Shown: positions 691 through 45,604 of the stretch, piece after piece
Layout: each line of letters begins with the position of its first letter
Position numbering within the stretch: position 1 is the stretch's first letter
DNA from: Escherichia coli
GTDB taxonomy: Bacteria > Pseudomonadota > Gammaproteobacteria > Enterobacterales > Enterobacteriaceae
DNA: 64,000 nt
Assembly: GCF_041886205.1 (NCBI RefSeq)
Contig: NZ_CP169029.1
Direction: 5' to 3' (one strand)
Program-made: the position numbers and the translations under genes
Notes under the pieces: generated by a model
Databases searched by the model: none
The model's input: only the letters and a program-made list of their open reading frames with translations
Told to the model about the DNA's origin: nothing

Positions 691-2382
691 ATGAAAACGC
701 TGCTGATTATTGACGCTAATCTCGGTCAGGCACGCGCCTATATGGCGAAGACCCTGCTGGGCGCGGCGGCGCGAAAAGCAAAACTGGAAATCATCGACAA
801 TCCGAACGACGCAGAAATGGCGATTGTTCTCGGTGATTCCATCCCGAATGACAGCGCGCTGAACGGTAAAAATGTCTGGCTGGGCGATATTTCCCGGGCA
901 GTTGCGCACCCTGAGCTGTTCCTGAGTGAAGCCAAAGGCCATGCGAAACCTTACACTGCGCCGGTCGCTGCGACAGCACCGGTTGCCGCCAGCGGTCCGA
1001 AACGCGTAGTTGCGGTGACTGCTTGCCCGACTGGCGTAGCACACACCTTTATGGCGGCTGAAGCCATTGAAACCGAAGCGAAAAAACGTGGCTGGTGGGT
1101 GAAAGTTGAAACCCGTGGTTCTGTTGGTGCGGGTAATGCAATCACCCCCGAAGAAGTAGCCGCAGCGGATCTGGTGATTGTGGCGGCAGATATCGAAGTG
1201 GATCTGGCGAAATTTGCTGGTAAACCGATGTATCGTACCTCTACCGGTCTGGCGCTGAAGAAAACCGCGCAGGAACTGGATAAAGCGGTTGCTGAAGCAA
1301 CGCCGTATGAACCGGCGGGCAAAGCTCAAACGGCGACCTCTGAAGGTAAGAAAGAGAGTGCAGGCGCATACCGTCACTTGCTGACGGGCGTCTCTTACAT
1401 GCTGCCGATGGTCGTTGCAGGTGGTCTGTGTATCGCGCTTTCTTTTGCTTTTGGTATCGAAGCGTTTAAAGAGCCGGGTACGTTGGCAGCGGCGCTGATG
1501 CAGATTGGTGGTGGTTCAGCCTTTGCGCTGATGGTGCCGGTACTGGCAGGTTACATTGCCTTCTCCATTGCCGATCGTCCGGGTCTCACGCCGGGTCTGA
1601 TTGGCGGTATGCTGGCGGTCAGCACCGGTTCTGGCTTCATTGGCGGTATTATTGCGGGCTTCCTGGCTGGTTACATTGCGAAGTTAATCAGTACGCAACT
1701 GAAACTGCCACAGAGTATGGAGGCGCTGAAACCAATCCTGATCATTCCGCTAATTTCCAGTCTGGTGGTCGGTCTGGCGATGATCTACCTGATCGGTAAA
1801 CCGGTTGCTGGCATTCTCGAAGGGCTGACTCACTGGCTGCAGACCATGGGGACTGCGAATGCGGTTCTGCTGGGGGCGATCCTCGGTGGCATGATGTGTA
1901 CTGACATGGGCGGTCCGGTAAACAAAGCAGCGTACGCATTCGGTGTGGGTCTGCTGAGTACTCAAACCTATGGCCCGATGGCGGCGATTATGGCGGCAGG
2001 TATGGTGCCACCGCTGGCAATGGGTCTGGCAACAATGGTGGCGCGTCGCAAATTCGACAAAGCGCAGCAGGAAGGTGGCAAAGCCGCTCTGGTATTGGGA
2101 CTGTGCTTCATTTCGGAAGGTGCAATTCCGTTTGCTGCTCGTGATCCGATGCGTGTGCTGCCGTGCTGTATCGTGGGTGGTGCGCTGACTGGCGCAATCT
2201 CAATGGCGATTGGTGCGAAACTGATGGCACCACACGGTGGTCTGTTTGTTCTGCTGATCCCTGGCGCTATTACGCCGGTACTGGGTTACCTGGTAGCAAT
2301 TATTGCCGGTACGCTGGTGGCGGGTTTGGCCTATGCCTTCCTGAAACGTCCGGAAGTGGACGCAGTAGCGAAAGCAGCGTAA
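691..2382 (+). CDS. fruA: PTS fructose-specific EIIB'BC component
   Basis: 563-aa ORF starting MKTLLIIDANLGQARAYMAK with a polytopic membrane C-domain; sits directly downstream of fruK. Confidence 0.95.
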   Translation: MKTLLIIDANLGQARAYMAKTLLGAAARKAKLEIIDNPNDAEMAIVLGDSIPNDSALNGKNVWLGDISRAVAHPELFLSEAKGHAKPYTAPVAATAPVAASGPKRVVAVTACPTGVAHTFMAAEAIETEAKKRGWWVKVETRGSVGAGNAITPEEVAAADLVIVAADIEVDLAKFAGKPMYRTSTGLALKKTAQELDKAVAEATPYEPAGKAQTATSEGKKESAGAYRHLLTGVSYMLPMVVAGGLCIALSFAFGIEAFKEPGTLAAALMQIGGGSAFALMVPVLAGYIAFSIADRPGLTPGLIGGMLAVSTGSGFIGGIIAGFLAGYIAKLISTQLKLPQSMEALKPILIIPLISSLVVGLAMIYLIGKPVAGILEGLTHWLQTMGTANAVLLGAILGGMMCTDMGGPVNKAAYAFGVGLLSTQTYGPMAAIMAAGMVPPLAMGLATMVARRKFDKAQQEGGKAALVLGLCFISEGAIPFAARDPMRVLPCCIVGGALTGAISMAIGAKLMAPHGGLFVLLIPGAITPVLGYLVAIIAGTLVAGLAYAFLKRPEVDAVAKAA

Positions 2383-2395
2383 TAAAAGGTGTGTT

Positions 2396-2420
2396 ACAGG
2401 GCAGAAATTTCCTGCCCTGT
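2396..2420 (+). terminator. 9-bp perfect stem-loop just after the fruA stop; no T-tract follows
   Basis: acagggcag-aaatttc-ctgccctgt read directly from the sequence. Confidence 0.35.
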
Positions 2421-2539
2421 ATCATTGGATGAGCGCAAAGGGAATGACCAGCTTGTGAATGTAATTTTATGAATTTAAATGGTTTTATCTTTCAGTAGAA
2501 ACTTGAAACGTTCATCAAACACTAAGGTTATTTCCTCAA

Positions 2540-2568
2540 GGGCAGATTATTTTCTGCCCTTTTTTATT
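2540..2568 (+). terminator. Rho-independent terminator candidate downstream of fruA
   Basis: gggcaga-ttattt-tctgccc stem-loop followed by tttttatt. Confidence 0.6.
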
Positions 2569-2805
2569 GTTCCTGTTCTGTGCATCCCGTCACAAATTCC
2601 TCGCTTTTGTAATTCAGGCATTTAATCGCATTTTGTGAGCCTGCTCAAATCTGCCCATTTAGCCTCTCTGGCGGTAATTTACTTTACGTAAAACATGCAT
2701 ACTATGAGCACATGTTTAAATATGAACACATGTTTAAACCGTCTTTGCAGTATCTATATTCTTGTGGATTGACAGGGTTGGTAATTTTTTACCAGAGGAC
2801 GTGCT

Positions 2806-3747
2806 ATGCGCGAAAAGGATTATGTCGTCATTATAGGCTCGGCGAATATTGATGTCGCCGGATATTCACATGAATCATTAAATTATGCGGATTCAAATCC
2901 AGGTAAAATAAAATTTACGCCTGGTGGAGTCGGGCGCAATATTGCACAAAACCTGGCGTTGCTGGGGAACAAAGCCTGGCTACTGAGCGCCGTAGGCAGT
3001 GACTTTTATGGTCAATCGCTGCTAACGCAAACCAATCAATCTGGCGTTTATGTCGATAAATGCCTGATTGTGCCGGGAGAAAATACGTCTAGTTATTTAT
3101 CATTACTCGATAATACCGGTGAAATGCTGGTTGCTATAAATGACATGAATATTAGCAACGCTATTACAGCTGAATATCTCGCACAGCACCGTGAATTTAT
3201 TCAGAGGGCAAAGGTCATTGTCGCGGACTGTAATATCAGTGAAGAGGCACTGGCATGGATTCTGGATAATGCCGCCAACGTACCCGTATTTGTCGATCCG
3301 GTTTCCGCATGGAAATGTGTCAAAGTGCGCGACCGTCTAAATCAGATCCACACTCTCAAGCCAAACCGCCTTGAAGCGGAAACCCTGAGTGGGATTGCGC
3401 TGTCAGGGCGTGACGATGTGGCAAAAGTTGCTGCCTGGTTCCATCAACATGGCCTGAACCGACTGGTATTGAGCATGGGCGGCGACGGCGTTTATTACAG
3501 CGATATCAGCGGTGAAAATGGCTGGTCTGCGCCGATCAAAACCAATGTTATTAATGTTACCGGAGCGGGCGATGCCATGATGGCGGGACTTGCTTCGTGT
3601 TGGGTAGACGGAATGCCGTTTGCCGAATCTGTTCGTTTCGCACAGGGATGTTCGTCAATGGCGCTCTCCTGTGAATACACCAATAACCCCGATTTATCGA
3701 TTGCCAACGTTATATCGTTAGTGGAGAACGCAGAATGTCTGAATTAA
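2806..3747 (+). CDS. psuK: Pseudouridine kinase (PfkB family)
   Basis: 313-aa ORF starting MREKDYVVIIGSANIDV, with ribokinase-like GG and GAGD motifs; overlaps psuG by 13 nt. Confidence 0.9.
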   Translation: MREKDYVVIIGSANIDVAGYSHESLNYADSNPGKIKFTPGGVGRNIAQNLALLGNKAWLLSAVGSDFYGQSLLTQTNQSGVYVDKCLIVPGENTSSYLSLLDNTGEMLVAINDMNISNAITAEYLAQHREFIQRAKVIVADCNISEEALAWILDNAANVPVFVDPVSAWKCVKVRDRLNQIHTLKPNRLEAETLSGIALSGRDDVAKVAAWFHQHGLNRLVLSMGGDGVYYSDISGENGWSAPIKTNVINVTGAGDAMMAGLASCWVDGMPFAESVRFAQGCSSMALSCEYTNNPDLSIANVISLVENAECLN

Positions 3748-35653: not shown

Positions 35654-36562
35654 CTAATTCTGCTGTAAAAAGTGCAGAAACTGACTTAAAGCATAAGAAG
35701 GCGTTTCGTTATTGCGCCAGAACACACCGACGCTGCCTTTCTGTTCTATCTTTGGCAGGTTGAGGATCACCAGTTGTCCCTGGCTGGCATAACGTTGCGC
35801 CAGGCGTAATGACAAAATAGAGATCATATCGCTGCTTTGTAACAGGTTGGTACTGACGTTCATCGACGCCGACTCAATCGTGTTTTCTGGCAGCATCACG
35901 CCGTGGTCTACCAGCGCATTATCAATGCTGATGCGGATGGGGGTACCTGTCGGCCAGACTATCCACCGCCAGTTAGCAAGATCATTCCAGCTGAGGGTGG
36001 CGTATTTCGCCAGTGGATGCTCAGGACGGGCGACAAAACACACCGGCTCGGTGTAGAGCACGCGATAATTCAGCGGCAGCTGCAACGCGCGACCGCCAAT
36101 TCGCCCAACCACCACATCGACAGAACCTGCCAACAGATCTTGCAGCAATGGGGTCATCACCTTCTCTTCGATATTCAGGTGTAGAGTTGGCATCTCCTTG
36201 AGCAAATGCAAAATCGCCTGGGATACGCAGTCAGTGGCGACGGGAGAACAGCCAATTTTCAGACTGCCGACCAGACCACCTTGTTTAAAACGGGCCAGTT
36301 CATGTTGCGAGCGCTCCATGTCATTGATTAACCGTTGGGCATGTTGCAATAACAATTTGCCGCCTTCAGTAGGACGAAGTCCTTTGCTGTGCCGCTCAAA
36401 AAGTGTGAGTCCGATCTCATCTTCCAGATGTGACAACCATTTCGAAAGCGCGGGTTGGGTGATATTCATCATCCGTGCGACATGGGTCAGATTACCCTGT
36501 TCACCCAGCGCCACCAGCATTTGCAGGTGATGAAGCTTTAGTTTCTGCGCCCAGTTTGCCAT
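35654..36562 (-). CDS. LysR-family regulator of the gentisate cluster (MhbR-like)
   Basis: 302-aa ORF with N-terminal LysR HTH (LHHLQMLVALGEQGNLTHVARMMNITQPALSKWL); divergent from the catabolic operon. Confidence 0.8.
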   Translation of the reverse strand: MANWAQKLKLHHLQMLVALGEQGNLTHVARMMNITQPALSKWLSHLEDEIGLTLFERHSKGLRPTEGGKLLLQHAQRLINDMERSQHELARFKQGGLVGSLKIGCSPVATDCVSQAILHLLKEMPTLHLNIEEKVMTPLLQDLLAGSVDVVVGRIGGRALQLPLNYRVLYTEPVCFVARPEHPLAKYATLSWNDLANWRWIVWPTGTPIRISIDNALVDHGVMLPENTIESASMNVSTNLLQSSDMISILSLRLAQRYASQGQLVILNLPKIEQKGSVGVFWRNNETPSYALSQFLHFLQQN

Positions 36563-36688
36563 TTGCCATAACCTTCAGGTTATCTCTCTGCTCGAAATGC
36601 CATTGTACATTTCATCTCTTTAATCACAATATCGCAACATACACAAAACAAAAGAAACATCTACCTTACCTGCACTGAGGCATTTACT

Positions 36689-38047
36689 ATGACTCAACGA
36701 CGTGATCTACAAGCACTGATCGATGCCGCTCCGGTCGGCAAGATGCAGTGGCGCGTTATCATCTGCTGTTTTCTGGTGGTAATGCTCGATGGTTTTGACA
36801 CCGCGGCTATCGGCTTTATCGCCCCTGATATTCGCACTCACTGGCAACTCACCGCAGGCGATCTCGCCCCGCTTTTTGGCGCGGGTCTGCTGGGGTTAAC
36901 CGCAGGCGCACTGCTTTGTGGCCCGTTGTCCGATCGCTTTGGTCGCAAACGGGTGATTGAGCTGTGTGTCTTTTTGTTTGGCGCGTTAAGCCTTGCCTCG
37001 GCTTTCTCACCGGATCTGCAAACGCTGGTATTCCTGCGTTTCCTAACCGGCCTTGGGCTGGGTGGCGCGATGCCAAACACCATCACCATAACCTCGGAAT
37101 ATCTGCCTGCCCGCCGCCGCGGCGCGCTGGTGACGCTGATGTTTTGCGGCTTTACGCTGGGTTCGGCGTTTGGCGGGATTGTTAGCGCGCAGCTGGTGCC
37201 GGTGATTGGCTGGCACGGCATTCTGGTGTTGGGGGGCGTGTTACCGCTGATGCTGTTTGTCGCACTGCTGGTAGTTCTGCCGGAATCGCCACGCTGGCAG
37301 GTGCGCCGCCAGCTACCGCAGGCGGTGATTGCGAAAACCGTCAGCGCCATCACCCGCGAGCGTTATGTCGATACCCACTTTTATCTCATTGAATCAGCCT
37401 CCGTTACAAAAGGCAGCATTCGTCAACTGTTTATGGGACGTCAGTTACCCATCACGTTGATGCTGTGGGTAGTGTTCTTTATGAGCCTGCTGATTATTTA
37501 CCTGCTCTCAAGCTGGATGCCGACGCTACTGAACCATCGCGGCATCGACCTGCAACACGCGTCCTGGGTCACCGCCGCGTTCCAGATTGGTGGTACGTTA
37601 GGCGCGCTGGCGCTGGGTGTGCTGATGGATAAGTTCAATCCTTTCCGCGTACTGGCACTGAGCTATGCCATAGGCGCTGTATGCATCGTGATGATTGGCT
37701 TAAGCCAGGACGGATTATGGCTGATGGCGCTGGCGATTTTCGGCACCGGCATTGGTATTAGCGGATCGCAGGTGGGGCTGAATGCGCTGACCGCCACACT
37801 TTATCCAACACAAAGTCGCGCCACGGGCGTGAGTTGGTCAAACGCCGTGGGTCGCTGCGGTGCGATTGTTGGCTCGCTTTCTGGCGGCGTGATGATGGCG
37901 ATGAATTTCTCTTTCGACACCCTGTTTTTCATTATCGCTGTGCCCGCGGCGATCAGTGCGGTGATGTTAGCCTTGCTGATTACCGTGGTTCGCCAGTCGA
38001 CCTCTGTCCCTGACTCACTGCCTCGCGCAGGCGTTGTGAACGAATAA
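36689..38047 (+). CDS. MFS aromatic-acid:H+ symporter (3-hydroxybenzoate/gentisate transporter, MhbT-like)
   Basis: 452-aa 12-TM-type ORF with MFS motifs ([11 protein letters not shown]), placed first in the gentisate operon. Confidence 0.8.
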
Positions 38048-38058
38048 GGAGCATCCTA

Positions 38059-39087
38059 ATGACTGATAACAATCAAAATAGCCGCGAACAATTTTATCAG
38101 CACATTTCCGGGCAAAACCTGACCCCGCTGTGGGAGTCACTACACCATCTGGTGCCGAAAACGCCCAACGCTAACTGTGTGCCAGCGTACTGGAATTATC
38201 AGGAGATCCGCCCGCTGCTGCTGGAGAGCGGCAGCCTGATTGGCGCGAAAGAGGCGGTGCGCCGCGTGCTGGTGCTGGAAAACCCGGCGCTGCGCGGGCA
38301 GTCTTCCATCACCGCGACTTTATATGCCGGTTTGCAACTGATCATGCCGGGCGAAGTGGCACCGAGTCATCGCCATAACCAGTCGGCGCTGCGTTTTATT
38401 GTTGAAGGCAAAGGGGCATTTACCGCCGTTGACGGCGAACGCACGCCAATGAATGAGGGCGATTTTATCCTCACTCCGCAGTGGCGCTGGCACGATCACG
38501 GTAACCCTGGCGACGAACCAGTTATCTGGCTCGATGGGCTGGATCTGCCATTAGTGAATACTCTGGGCTGCGGTTTTGCCGAAGATTACCCGGAAGAGCA
38601 ACAACCGGTAACGCGTAAAGAGGGCGATTATCTGCCGCGTTACGCTGCCAATATGTTGCCGCTGCGCCATCAGACCGGGAACTCCTCACCCATCTTTAAC
38701 TACCGTTATGACCGCAGCCGCGAAGTGCTGCACGATTTAACCCGCCTGGGCGATGCCGATGAGTGGGATGGCTACAAAATGCGCTACGTCAACCCGGTCA
38801 CCGGTGGCTATCCGATGCCGTCGATGGGCGCTTTCCTGCAACTGCTGCCGAAAGGGTTCGCCTCCCGCGTGGCGCGTACCACTGACAGCACCATCTATCA
38901 CGTGGTGGAAGGCGGCGGGCAGGTCACCATCGGCAATGAAACCTTCAGCTTTAGTGCAAAAGATATCTTCGTGGTGCCGACCTGGCACGGCGTGTCGTTC
39001 CAGACCACGCAAGATACCGTGTTATTCAGTTTTTCGGACAGACCGGTACAAGAAGCCCTGGGACTGTTCCGCGAAGCGCGTTATTAA
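38059..39087 (+). CDS. Gentisate 1,2-dioxygenase (bicupin)
   Basis: 342-aa ORF with two cupin modules and His-rich metal site ([12 protein letters not shown]…WRWHDHGN). Confidence 0.85.
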
Positions 39088-39102
39088 TTTGGGAGAGAAA
39101 AA

Positions 39103-39804
39103 ATGACTCAATACGTATTCGAACCACAAGCGCCCGTTACCGTACCGGTTGTTGGCAGTGATGAACAATTCCCCGTGCGCCGCGTGTACTGCGTCGGACG
39201 TAACTATGCCGCCCACGCCCGCGAAATGGGCTTTGATCCGGATCGTGAACCGCCATTCTTCTTCTGCAAACCGGCGGATGCCGTTGTTCCGGTTGCCGCT
39301 GGCGAAACGCTGGCGCTGCCGTATCCGGCGCAGACCGATAACTACCATTACGAAATTGAACTGGTGGTGGCGATTGGTAAAAAGGGCAGTGATATCCCGC
39401 TGGAAAACGCCCATGAATATGTCTGGGGTTATGCCACGGGTCTTGATATGACTCGTCGTGACCGTCAAATGGAAATGCGCCAGATGGGCCGCCCGTGGGA
39501 AATCGGCAAAGCGTTTGATCTCTCGGCCCCCATCGCGCCGCTGCACAAAGCCAGCGAAACCGGCGGTATTGATAACGCGCCAATCTGGTTACAGGTTAAC
39601 GGCGAAGATCATCAGCGCAGCGATATTCGCCATCTCATCTGGTCAGTGAATGAAACCATCAGCTACCTGTCCGGCTTTTTTGAACTGCAACCGGGCGATC
39701 TGATCTTCACCGGTACGCCGGAAGGGGTTGGCCCGGTAGTGAAAGGTGATGTGATCACGGGCAACGTCGAGGGCTTAACGCCTATCGCGGTGAAAATTGT
39801 CTGA
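39103..39804 (+). CDS. Fumarylpyruvate hydrolase (FAH family)
   Basis: 233-aa ORF with fumarylacetoacetate-hydrolase fold motifs ([15 protein letters not shown]); sits between the dioxygenase and the isomerase. Confidence 0.8.
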
Positions 39805-39809
39805 GGTGC

Positions 39810-40457
39810 ATGATGAAGCTGTACAGTTTTTTTAATAGTTCAGCATCGTACCGGGTACGCATTGCGCTGGCGCTGAAAGGCATTGATTACCATACCGAAG
39901 GGGTGAATATCCGCATTGGTCAGCAAAATGAACTGGCCTACCGGCGGATGAATCCGGTCGGGCTGGTGCCGACGCTGCTGACTGACGAGGGCGAATCACT
40001 TGGACAATCGCTGGCGATTATTGACTGGCTGGATCGTCACTACCCCCAAGTTCCGCTGATGCCGCAGGAAGAGCCGGCCCGCAACAAGGTGCTGGAAATT
40101 GTCTATGCCATCGCCTGTGATATTCATCCACTGAATAACCTGCGCGTGCTGCGCTACCTGACCGAAGAGCTGAACGTCAGTGAAGAAGATAAAAAACGCT
40201 GGTATGCGCACTGGATCCAGCAAGGGTTAAGCGCGGTGGAACAGCTGTTGCGCCAGAGCCAGTCGGGGCAATTTTGCGTGGGCGAGACGCCGACGCTGGC
40301 AGATTGCTGCCTTGTCCCGCAGTGGGCGAACGCGCTACGCATGAACTGCGATCTGAGTGGGTATCCGCGCTGCAAAGCGGTGTACGACGCCTGCACGCAG
40401 CTGCCAGCGTTCATTGCCGCAGCGCCAGAAAATCAACAAGATAAAATTTCAGCCTGA
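39810..40457 (+). CDS. Maleylpyruvate isomerase (GST zeta-class / maleylacetoacetate isomerase-like)
   Basis: 215-aa ORF with GST N-terminal thioredoxin-like fold (MKLYSFFNSSASYRVRIALALKGIDY). Confidence 0.8.
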   Translation: MMKLYSFFNSSASYRVRIALALKGIDYHTEGVNIRIGQQNELAYRRMNPVGLVPTLLTDEGESLGQSLAIIDWLDRHYPQVPLMPQEEPARNKVLEIVYAIACDIHPLNNLRVLRYLTEELNVSEEDKKRWYAHWIQQGLSAVEQLLRQSQSGQFCVGETPTLADCCLVPQWANALRMNCDLSGYPRCKAVYDACTQLPAFIAAAPENQQDKISA

Positions 40458-40468
40458 CCAGGAGAACC

Positions 40469-41665
40469 ATGATGACTAAAGTGACACGCGCAGTAATTGT
40501 GGGAGGCGGGATCGGCGGTGCGGCAACTGCGCTGTCACTGGCCCGCCAGGGGATCAAAGTGGTGCTGCTGGAAAAGGCGCATGAGATTGGTGAGATTGGC
40601 GCGGGCATCCAGTTGGGGCCAAATGCGTTTTCGGCGTTGGATAGCCTCGGCGTCGGCGAAATCGCCCGCCAGCGCGCGGTATTCACCGATCACATCACCA
40701 TGATGGATGCGGTAAACGCCGAAGAAGTGGTGCGCATTGAAACCGGTCAGGCCTTTCGCGACCATTTCGGCGGCCCTTACGCGGTGATCCACCGGGTTGA
40801 TATTCACGCCTCGGTGTGGGAAGCGGTACTGACGCATCCGGACGTGGAATATCACACCTCCACCAACGTCGTGGATATTCGTGAGACGGAAGACGATGTC
40901 ACCGTGTTTGACGATCGCGGCAATAGCTGGAGCGGCGATATTCTGATTGGCTGTGATGGCGTGAAGTCAGTGGTGCGCCAGAGCTTATTAGGCGATGCGC
41001 CGCGCGTCACCGGACATGTGGTCTACCGCGCAGTTATCGATTGTGCGGATATGCCGGAAGATTTGCGCATTAACGCACCAGTACTGTGGGCGGGGCCGCA
41101 CTGTCACCTGGTGCATTACCCTTTGCGCGGCGGCAAGCAGTATAACCTGGTGGTGACATTCCACAGCCGCCAGCAGGAAGAGTGGGGCGTGAAGGATGGC
41201 AGTAAAGAGGAAGTGCTCTCTTACTTTGAAGGGATTCACCCCCGTCCTCGCCAGATGCTGGATAAACCGACCTCCTGGCGACGCTGGTCAACCGCCGACC
41301 GTGAACCGGTAGCGAAGTGGGGAACGAAGCGCATTACGCTGGTTGGCGATGCGGCCCATCCGGTGGCGCAGTATATGGCGCAGGGTGCCTGTATGGCGTT
41401 GGAAGACGCGGTAACGCTCGGCAAGGCGCTGGCGCAGTGTGAGGGGGATGCGGCGCAAGCCTTTGCACTGTATGAGTCGGTACGTATTCCGCGCACCGCG
41501 CGCATCGTCTGGTCGACCCGTGAAATGGGGCGGGTTTATCACGCCGCAGGAGTAGAGCGCCAGGTACGAAACCTGCTGTGGAAAGGTAAATCGCAGGCAG
41601 AGTTTTACCGCGGCATGGAGTGGCTGTACGGCTGGAAAGAAGATAACTGTCTGCAACCACGCTGA
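40469..41665 (+). CDS. FAD-dependent 3-hydroxybenzoate 6-hydroxylase (salicylate hydroxylase-like monooxygenase)
   Basis: 398-aa ORF with N-terminal GxGxxG motif ([14 protein letters not shown]) and C-terminal FAD-binding motif ([22 protein letters not shown]). Confidence 0.8.
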
Positions 41666-42715: not shown

Positions 42716-42960
42716 TCAATAGGCCGCACGGTTGTTTGGTGGCGTCAAAATTGCCGAGGCGTTCCCTGAAGGCCGGGGCAGCCCACATGGATGTGGGCTG
42801 AGGGCGCGTTTTACAGGGATGTTACCTCGCGCCCGACCCGGTAGCCGTAAGGGATAAGCCGAGGGCACCGCGCAGCGGCGATTTTGTTCGCCAGAGCCCG
42901 GGGGTGCAGGGGGCGGCGGCGATTGGCCGCCCCCTGCGCGCTCCTTGCGCCAGTGATTAT
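42716..42960. repeat. GC-rich intergenic block with several perfect stem-loops; unclassified structured element
   Basis: Hairpins gcagggggcggc-ggcgattg-gccgccccctgc (42906-42936), gcccacat-gg-atgtgggc, and gggcgcg…cgcgccc; it lacks the ccggat / atccgg REP core. Confidence 0.3.
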
Positions 42961-43045
42961 ATGAAGCAATGCACATGACAGGAGCGCAACAGGATGAGAG
43001 ACTGAAATATTCTCGTTATTTTCGGACCTGATGACATTAATTAAT

Positions 43046-43130
43046 TTTAAAATATCATCTTAAATACGCCAGTCACCACCAGTAGCCCAATCAGGAAAAT
43101 AATCAATACAGCCCAGAGTATAATTTTCAT
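43046..43130 (-). CDS. yohP: Small membrane protein YohP (27 aa)
   Basis: Hand translation gives MKIILWAVLIIFLIGLLVVTGVFKMIF with an AAGGAA Shine-Dalgarno 5 nt upstream; it is below the ORF-track size cutoff. Confidence 0.65.
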
Positions 43131-43353: not shown

Positions 43354-44790
43354 ATGAATCGTGATTCCTTTTATCCCGCCATCGCCTGTTTTCCGCTGTT
43401 ACTGATGCTGGCCGGGTGTGCGCCTATGCATGAAACCCGCCAGGCGTTAAGCCAGCAAACGCCCGCTGCACAAGTTGACACCGCATTACCCACGGCGCTG
43501 AAAAATGGTTGGCCAGACAGCCAATGGTGGCTGGAGTATCACGATAATCAGCTCACTTCATTAATTAACAATGCACTACAGAACGCACCGGATATGCAGG
43601 TGGCTGAACAGCGCATTCAGCTAGCTGAAGCCCAGGCGAAGGCAGTTGCCACTCAGGATGGTCCGCAGATCGACTTTTCGGCGGATATGGAGCGGCAAAA
43701 AATGTCGGCAGAAGGCTTAATGGGGCCGTTTGCTCTGAACGATCCGGCCGCAGGTACGACCGGCCCGTGGTACACCAACGGTACTTTTGGCTTAACGGCG
43801 GGCTGGCATCTCGATATCTGGGGAAAGAATCGGGCGGAGGTTACTGCCCGCCTGGGTACGGTTAAAGCACGGGCGGCGGAACGCGAGCAAACCCGCCAAT
43901 TGCTGGCTGGCAGCGTAGCCCGCCTGTACTGGGAGTGGCAAACCCAGGCGGCGTTAAACACGGTCTTGCAGCAAATAGAAAAAGAGCAGAACACCATTAT
44001 CGCGACCGATCGCCAGCTATATCAGAACGGGATTACTTCTTCAGTTGAAGGTGTGGAAACCGATATTAATGCCAGCAAAACCCGGCAGCAGCTCAACGAT
44101 GTCGCGGGGAAAATGAAAATTATTGAGGCACGGTTAAGCGCACTTACAAATCACCAGACAAAGTCATTGAAGCTTAAACCGGTCGCGTTGCCGAAAGTGG
44201 CAAGCCAGCTTCCTGATGAACTGGGGTACTCCTTACTGGCCCGGCGGGCAGATTTGCAGGCGGCGCACTGGTACGTTGAGTCATCGCTAAGCACCATTGA
44301 TGCGGCAAAAGCGGCATTTTATCCTGACATCAACCTGATGGCCTTCCTGCAACAGGATGCGTTGCACTTAAGCGATCTGTTCCGTCATTCCGCGCAGCAA
44401 ATGGGCGTTACGGCAGGCCTGACGCTACCCATTTTCGATAGTGGTCGTCTTAACGCCAATCTCGATATCGCAAAAGCCGAAAGCAACTTGTCTATCGCCA
44501 GCTACAACAAAGCGGTGGTTGAAGCGGTGAATGACGTGGCGCGGGCAGCCAGTCAGGTTCAGACACTTGCGGAGAAAAACCAGCATCAGGCGCAAATTGA
44601 GCGCGATGCCTTGCGTGTGGTAGGTCTTGCGCAGGCGCGCTTTAACGCGGGCATCATTGCTGGTTCCCGCGTCAGCGAAGCCAGAATCCCCGCGCTGCGT
44701 GAGCGGGCCAATGGCCTGTTATTGCAAGGGCAGTGGCTGGATGCCTCCATTCAACTCACTGGTGTGTTGGGCGGGGGTTACAAACGCTGA
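43354..44790 (+). CDS. mdtQ: Outer membrane efflux lipoprotein, NodT/OMF family (MdtQ/YohG), apparently intact
   Basis: 478 aa from ATG 43354 (MNRDSFYPAIACFPLLLMLAGC lipoprotein signal with lipobox Cys); one uninterrupted reading frame. Confidence 0.8.
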   Translation: MNRDSFYPAIACFPLLLMLAGCAPMHETRQALSQQTPAAQVDTALPTALKNGWPDSQWWLEYHDNQLTSLINNALQNAPDMQVAEQRIQLAEAQAKAVATQDGPQIDFSADMERQKMSAEGLMGPFALNDPAAGTTGPWYTNGTFGLTAGWHLDIWGKNRAEVTARLGTVKARAAEREQTRQLLAGSVARLYWEWQTQAALNTVLQQIEKEQNTIIATDRQLYQNGITSSVEGVETDINASKTRQQLNDVAGKMKIIEARLSALTNHQTKSLKLKPVALPKVASQLPDELGYSLLARRADLQAAHWYVESSLSTIDAAKAAFYPDINLMAFLQQDALHLSDLFRHSAQQMGVTAGLTLPIFDSGRLNANLDIAKAESNLSIASYNKAVVEAVNDVARAASQVQTLAEKNQHQAQIERDALRVVGLAQARFNAGIIAGSRVSEARIPALRERANGLLLQGQWLDASIQLTGVLGGGYKR

Positions 44791-44842
44791 TGATATGCGC
44801 CTTCTATACTTAACGTTTATTCAGCGTTAAGTGGAGAACTCG

Positions 44843-45604
44843 ATGGCACAGGTTGCGATTATTACCGCCTCCGATTCGGGGATCGGCAAAGAGTGCGCGT
44901 TATTACTGGCGCAGCAGGGGTTTGATATTGGTATTACCTGGCACTCAGATGAAGAAGGGGCAAAAGATACCGCGCGTGAGGTAGTTAGCCACGGCGTACG
45001 TGCGGAGATCGTGCAGCTGGATCTCGGCAATCTACCAGAAGGGGCACTGGCGCTGGAGAAACTCATTCAACGGCTGGGGCGCATTGATGTGCTGGTGAAT
45101 AATGCGGGTGCAATGACCAAAGCGCCGTTTCTTGATATGGCTTTTGATGAGTGGCGCAAGATTTTTACCGTTGATGTCGATGGTGCATTCTTATGCTCGC
45201 AAATTGCGGCTCGTCAGATGGTGAAACAAGGGCAGGGCGGTCGCATCATCAACATTACGTCGGTACATGAACATACGCCGCTGCCGGATGCCAGCGCCTA
45301 CACAGCCGCTAAACATGCGCTCGGTGGGTTAACCAAAGCGATGGCGCTGGAGCTGGTCAGGCATAAGATTTTGGTGAACGCAGTCGCGCCTGGGGCGATC
45401 GCCACGCCAATGAATGGCATGGATGACAGCGACGTGAAGCCCGACGCGGAGCCTTCGATTCCCTTGCGGCGTTTTGGCGCAACGCATGAGATTGCCAGCC
45501 TGGTGGTGTGGCTTTGTTCGGAGGGCGCAAATTACACCACCGGGCAGTCGTTGATAGTGGATGGCGGCTTTATGTTGGCGAATCCACAGTTCAACCCAGA
45601 ATAG
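44843..45604 (+). CDS. yohF: Short-chain dehydrogenase/reductase YohF
   Basis: Start at MAQVAIITASDSGIGKE (253 aa); SDR TGxxxGxG-type motif and YxxxK. Confidence 0.85.
   Translation: MAQVAIITASDSGIGKECALLLAQQGFDIGITWHSDEEGAKDTAREVVSHGVRAEIVQLDLGNLPEGALALEKLIQRLGRIDVLVNNAGAMTKAPFLDMAFDEWRKIFTVDVDGAFLCSQIAARQMVKQGQGGRIINITSVHEHTPLPDASAYTAAKHALGGLTKAMALELVRHKILVNAVAPGAIATPMNGMDDSDVKPDAEPSIPLRRFGATHEIASLVVWLCSEGANYTTGQSLIVDGGFMLANPQFNPE

Follow-up and report, generated by a model that had tools for sequence, protein, structure and literature searches.

An intact mdtQ (yohG) in Escherichia coli and the one-base deletion that interrupts it in K-12

Four outer-membrane channels have been described in Escherichia coli, namely TolC, CusC, MdtP and MdtQ, with a sequence identity between TolC and MdtQ of about 12% (PMC11762307). 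Other papers count MdtQ among the lipidated outer-membrane factors of the species, and one names the K-12 locus 'the mdtQ pseudogene'. According to a 2025 review, mdtQ (also known as yohG), although annotated as a pseudogene, is a conserved part of the E. coli core genome, is encoded alone, and has a promoter that lacks experimental confirmation and a product whose function is regarded as not elucidated (PMC11762307). As cited in the same review, mdtQ null mutants 'in E. coli' are hypersusceptible to drugs, and the substrates connected with MdtQ-dependent drug tolerance are puromycin, acriflavine and tetraphenylarsonium chloride (PMC11762307). The existence of an intact mdtQ, its family, its pseudogene status in K-12 and its conservation are already known from annotation and from this review (PMC11762307). 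Here, we compare mdtQ in a 64,000-nucleotide stretch of E. coli DNA (the window) with K-12, with other complete genomes of the species and with the described channels.

In the window, mdtQ runs from an ATG at 43354 to a TGA at 44788-44790, as read from both the list of open reading frames and the raw sequence (Table 1). A sequence-only reading of this stretch had claimed a single uninterrupted frame of 478 codons, and its codon count and coordinates were exact: the frame, once translated, showed no internal stop or indel within 43354-44790, and no premature stop had been missed. The open frame represents a real gene rather than a chance one, because it reaches 1023.5 bits on the NCBIfam equivalog profile for MdtQ (NF008524), whose cutoff is 650, and the E-value is given as 0. 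Residues 1-478 fall on profile positions 1-478 of 478, and at the DNA level the gene shows 100% identity with mdtQ as annotated (WP_001078134.1) in E. coli strain wlxctx60, which was isolated from the faeces of an Asian black bear in Japan and is also 100% identical to the window over positions 32000-56000. RefSeq places the start of this identical gene at the same ATG, and it is on account of the profile alignment and this RefSeq choice that we set the mdtQ start at 43354. The mechanical list of open reading frames begins the gene at an upstream TTG (43264, 508 aa), a start that we rejected given the complete profile alignment from the ATG and its use by RefSeq, and that is further disfavoured by a 30-residue extension that would bury the signal peptide.

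Table 1. Positions of mdtQ, its sequence features and its neighbours, in window coordinates unless otherwise indicated
Feature	Position	Strand	Basis or remark
mdtQ (yohG) CDS, intact	43354..44790	+	478 codons plus TGA, 1437 nt
Predicted lipoprotein signal peptide, residues 1-22	43354..43419	+	Sequence read and lipobox regular expression
MdtQ lipobox, L19-A20-G21-C22	43408-43419	+	Cys22 codon TGT at 43417-43419
A5 run, codons K50-N51, gene nt 148-152	43501..43505	+	MG1655 alignment; A4 in K-12
Two tandem OEP (PF02321) repeats, channel body	43558..44787	+	Pfam profile, solved homologues
yohF (SDR oxidoreductase)	44843..45604	+	NF009384, 484.8 bits; 52 nt downstream of mdtQ
yohP, small membrane protein, 27 aa	43047..43130	-	Exact match to K-12 yohP; divergent from mdtQ
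IS1A and mdtQ remnant, E. coli STEC379	2248-3573 of that locus		IS1A replaces the 5' 60% of the gene

MdtQ of the window is a full-length member of both the MdtQ equivalog family and the NodT subfamily, and the earlier claim of a NodT-family outer-membrane efflux lipoprotein was upheld by family profiles, lipobox and solved homologues alike. Specifically, the protein scores 270 bits on the profile for NodT-type efflux outer-membrane subunits (TIGR01845; TC 1.B.17), above the cutoff of 210.05, with residues 16-475 on profile positions 4-460 of 460, and PF02321 (OEP) recurs in two tandem stretches (106.8 bits, cutoff 22). The first of these stretches covers residues 69-266, and the remainder of the mature protein can be aligned with solved channels as far as residue 477. 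VceC (PDB 1yc9) is matched at E=4.1e-39, with query residues 51-477 on chain residues 19-438 of 442, and the further solved homologues are OprM, SilC, CmeC, CusC, OprN, MtrE and OprJ, the E-values of the whole set (VceC included) ranging from 4e-39 to 8e-18 over nearly the entire mature protein. The N-terminus (MNRDSFYPAIACFPLLLMLAGCAP) comprises a positive n-region (R3) and then a hydrophobic core, and the residue after the lipobox cysteine is Ala, the Asp signal for inner-membrane retention being absent. Under the Lol-avoidance rule, Asp after the cysteine retains a lipoprotein in the inner membrane, and Ala at this position fits sorting to the outer membrane. The LAGC lipobox and the Ala that follows it are kept in all eight mdtQ alleles examined.

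By analogy with NodT-type outer-membrane factors, the MdtQ precursor would be translocated by Sec and would receive a diacylglyceryl group at Cys22, where it would also be cleaved; lacking Asp at position +2, it would probably be carried to the outer membrane by the Lol system. There it is expected to trimerise, forming a pore whose beta-barrel lies in the outer membrane and whose long alpha-helical tunnel extends into the periplasm, and it may dock an adaptor in the periplasm and a transporter in the inner membrane, both encoded at other loci, and would serve as the exit duct for their substrates. No adaptor or transporter gene lies in the annotated stretches beside mdtQ, the neighbours being dusC, yohP, yohF, yohD, yohC and pbpG.

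The sequence-only reading had taken mdtQ to be annotated as a disrupted pseudogene in K-12, and had put forward an alignment to the K-12 gene as a means of finding the break. This proved correct: the annotation of MG1655 gives b2139, 1436 nt long, as a pseudogene, and mdtQ of DH5a, identical to that of MG1655, is flagged 'frameshifted' by PGAP. The alignment likewise located the lesion. Between the window and MG1655 there are seven substitutions and one indel, the latter a 1-bp deletion that turns the A5 run of the window (Table 1) into A4, and no identical intact frame was found in K-12 by this comparison. As a result of the deletion, translation of the K-12 gene in frame 1 stops after 69 residues, of which the first 50 are native and the last 19 out of frame, and the rest of the gene is open in another frame without a signal peptide. 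Five of the substitutions are synonymous and two change amino acids (H267N and V471A). These two residues are the only differences that separate the window protein from a K-12 MdtQ repaired in silico, and this near-identity points to a recent lesion. Knowing the exact change, one A lost at codons 50-51, offers a handle for a one-base repair test of MdtQ function.

Single-base differences in homopolymers are a classic form of sequencing error, and one could argue that the K-12 pseudogene is an artefact of sequencing or annotation and that K-12 is really intact. We give this practically no weight. A 60-mer query with the A4 sequence of K-12 is found at no less than 99% identity in 355 of 5426 complete E. 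coli genomes, MG1655 and DH5a agree over the whole gene with the frameshift of the latter flagged independently by PGAP, and no K-12 assembly carrying A5 was seen. An error of sequencing is refuted by the 355 assemblies. All 60 of the A4-matching genomes listed look, judging by their names, like K-12 laboratory derivatives; the A4 genomes include MG1655, DH5a, C600, J53, DH1, NCM3722 and AG100.

Across the species, mdtQ is present in 5420 of the 5426 complete genomes, and in 5390 the match covers at least 80% of the gene. A 33-mer with the A5 run at its centre, which cannot seed a megablast match on the A4 allele, matches 4916 of the 5426 (90.6%). The intact state was sampled through such allele-specific short queries, 40 evenly spaced rows of the gene search and eight genome records. 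Genomes matching neither the A5 nor the A4 query presumably have substitutions close to the run or lesions of another kind. Seven divergent alleles (97.3-99.3% DNA identity), which include those of NC101 and O55:H7 CB9615 and are taken, from strain identity, to span several phylogroups, are all annotated mdtQ, all 1437 nt long, all free of internal stops and all A5. Nei-Gojobori estimates of dN/dS for the window against these seven alleles lie at 0.03-0.13, and the 34 pairs with dS above 0.02 average 0.10. Values of about 0.1 among the sampled alleles point to clear purifying selection on mdtQ.

On this sampling, an intact mdtQ is evidently the norm of the species and K-12 the exception. The suggestion of the sequence-only reading that this strain keeps an mdtQ that K-12 has lost therefore stands genetically, but not as a peculiarity of the strain, given that about 91% of the genomes carry the intact site. 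An opposite history can also be envisioned, in which the ancestral gene was broken and the intact frame of this strain arose by secondary reversion. The likelihood of such a history is vanishingly small, and it is contradicted on several grounds: A5 is found in all sampled non-K-12 alleles and in the 4916 genomes, which refutes reversion in this strain, the MdtQ equivalog profile aligns without a frameshift, and the break is a young event of the K-12 lineage alone, as the two residue differences after repair indicate. The overall best explanation of the data includes the window mdtQ as the ancestral, intact allele, a reading in which we place strong confidence. K-12 is the atypical strain at mdtQ, and conclusions on E. 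coli channels drawn from K-12 ignore a gene under purifying selection that has the intact site in about 91% of complete genomes.

Losses of mdtQ are not restricted to K-12. E. coli STEC379 is an independent natural loss outside that lineage, its IS1A-interrupted locus (Table 1) retaining gene nt 865-1437 as a partial gene annotated 'TolC family protein'. In Salmonella, independent truncations of mdtQ have been reported in a minority of isolates of Typhi and Paratyphi A (PMC9241588). The gene is dispensable in some lineages, since it has been lost in K-12, in STEC379 and in some Salmonella isolates.

The gene order at the window locus, yohP-mdtQ-yohF-yohD-yohC-pbpG, is the usual one, and mdtQ lies between yohP and yohF in K-12 too, as well as in eight other genomes with a full-length gene. 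Annotated beside mdtQ in every genome record examined, yohP encodes a protein that has been linked to membrane depolarisation and starvation (PMC12719787). For yohF, the mechanical list gives a GTG start at 44831 (257 aa) and RefSeq an ATG at 44843 (253 aa); a GGAG ribosome-binding site lies a few bases upstream of the ATG, and the 253-aa form is matched by NF009384 from its first residue. A scan of the gap between mdtQ and yohF found no terminator-like site, and the two genes are possibly co-transcribed. The original account of the yohG null-mutant phenotype is reportedly that of Sulavik et al. (2001). If those mutants were K-12, their phenotype would be hard to explain through MdtQ, which is frameshifted there after codon 50, and the drug phenotype of mutants made in K-12 might reflect polarity on yohF.

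Upstream of mdtQ, no Shine-Dalgarno-like motif was found before the ATG (upstream sequence TTACCTGATTATTCCCCC). The sole promoter-like match on the + strand lies about 300 nt away, at 43031-43058, where it overlaps the 3' end of yohP, and the promoter scan returned 2 sites against 3.4 expected from shuffled sequence, hence no excess. Further upstream, the TRIP1c repeat has been described in the interval between yohI/dusC and yohG, at a distance of 43 bp from the stop of the former and 363 bp from the start of the latter, and recombination between TRIP1 copies is reported to cause chromosomal rearrangements (PMC10888264). In the window, the dusC-yohP intergenic region (approximately 42718-42990) should hold this repeat. 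A spurious open reading frame of 86 aa on the - strand (42716-42976), rich in Pro, Gly and Arg, overlaps the predicted TRIP1c region.

Beyond dusC, the window carries a six-gene cluster for 3-hydroxybenzoate/gentisate catabolism (35654-41665) in the interval that separates yohJ/yohK from dusC and that is empty in K-12. It consists of a LysR regulator on the - strand and, on the + strand and in this order, the MFS transporter MhbT, gentisate 1,2-dioxygenase, a FAH-family hydrolase, the isomerase maiA and 3-hydroxybenzoate 6-monooxygenase, an order that we take to resemble Klebsiella mhbRTDHIM. Of the 5426 complete E. coli genomes, only 614 have the cluster; O157:H7 strains, at about 96% identity, are among them, and 26 of the places are on plasmids. 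Its restriction to these 614 genomes and its plasmid occurrences mark it as a variable accessory island beside a core region.

How the conserved frame relates to activity is a separate matter. From the intact frame, a dN/dS of about 0.1 and species-wide conservation, we infer that MdtQ would be a functional channel in this strain. One may object that the gene is intact yet cryptic, poorly or never expressed, without a dedicated pump and adding no channel activity beyond that of K-12. Several of the above observations lean this way: mdtQ is an orphan with no adjoining adaptor or transporter, it has neither a Shine-Dalgarno-like sequence nor a convincing promoter, its loss is tolerated in K-12, in STEC379 and in some Salmonella isolates, and neither its function nor its promoter is established in the literature (PMC11762307). 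However, a dN/dS of about 0.1 and an intact site in at least 4916 of 5426 genomes are unexpected for a functionless gene, and the drug hypersusceptibility of mdtQ null mutants, as cited in the review, also speaks against a silent gene (PMC11762307). On balance, we regard a cryptic mdtQ as unlikely.

A working MdtQ need not export drugs. It could instead be a duct for an endogenous metabolite, a peptide or another compound, reached through an MFS or ABC partner, much as MdtP operates with MdtNO. After MdtQ itself, the nearest E. coli model is that of MdtP (354 bits), the drug phenotypes reported for MdtQ are modest, and the review calls the two proteins divergent, with possibly distinct functions (PMC11762307). 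Direct evidence for any alternative substrate is nonetheless absent and the neighbourhood points to none, yohF encoding a generic SDR oxidoreductase, which leaves a duct for compounds other than drugs as a tentative possibility. A bolder proposal is that MdtQ of natural isolates provides a second general exit duct, pairing with TolC-dependent pumps or with an unrecognised partner, and that decades of efflux genetics in K-12 have missed it through the recent frameshift of that strain. We consider this quite improbable; were it true, restoring a single A in K-12 would expose a TolC-independent efflux or export phenotype.

Among known systems, the closest is E. coli MdtQ as already annotated (WP_001078134.1; Q8X659 in O157:H7), which is the same gene and differs in nothing of substance; the protein of the O55:H7 allele is identical to that of the window at 475 of 478 residues. 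Next comes MdtP (YjcP, of the MdtNOP system), the closest paralog model and likewise a NodT-type lipoprotein channel. The MdtP equivalog profile NF007390 scores 354.4 bits over residues 17-477 of MdtQ, under its cutoff of 597, and MdtQ is for this reason a paralog of MdtP and not MdtP itself. By contrast with mdtQ, which stands alone in the window as it does in the literature, the operon of mdtP also encodes an adaptor and an MFS pump (PMC11762307). VceC of Vibrio cholerae, OprM, CusC, SilC and CmeC, all lipoprotein outer-membrane factors of tripartite pumps, are homologous across the whole of mature MdtQ (E=4e-39 to 5e-21). TolC is more distant: the profile for the TolC family and type I secretion (TIGR01844) gives a weak 54.7 bits, below its cutoff of 225.15, and TolC and MdtQ share a superfamily and a predicted architecture but belong to different subfamilies, TolC being non-lipidated according to the literature whereas MdtQ has a lipobox.
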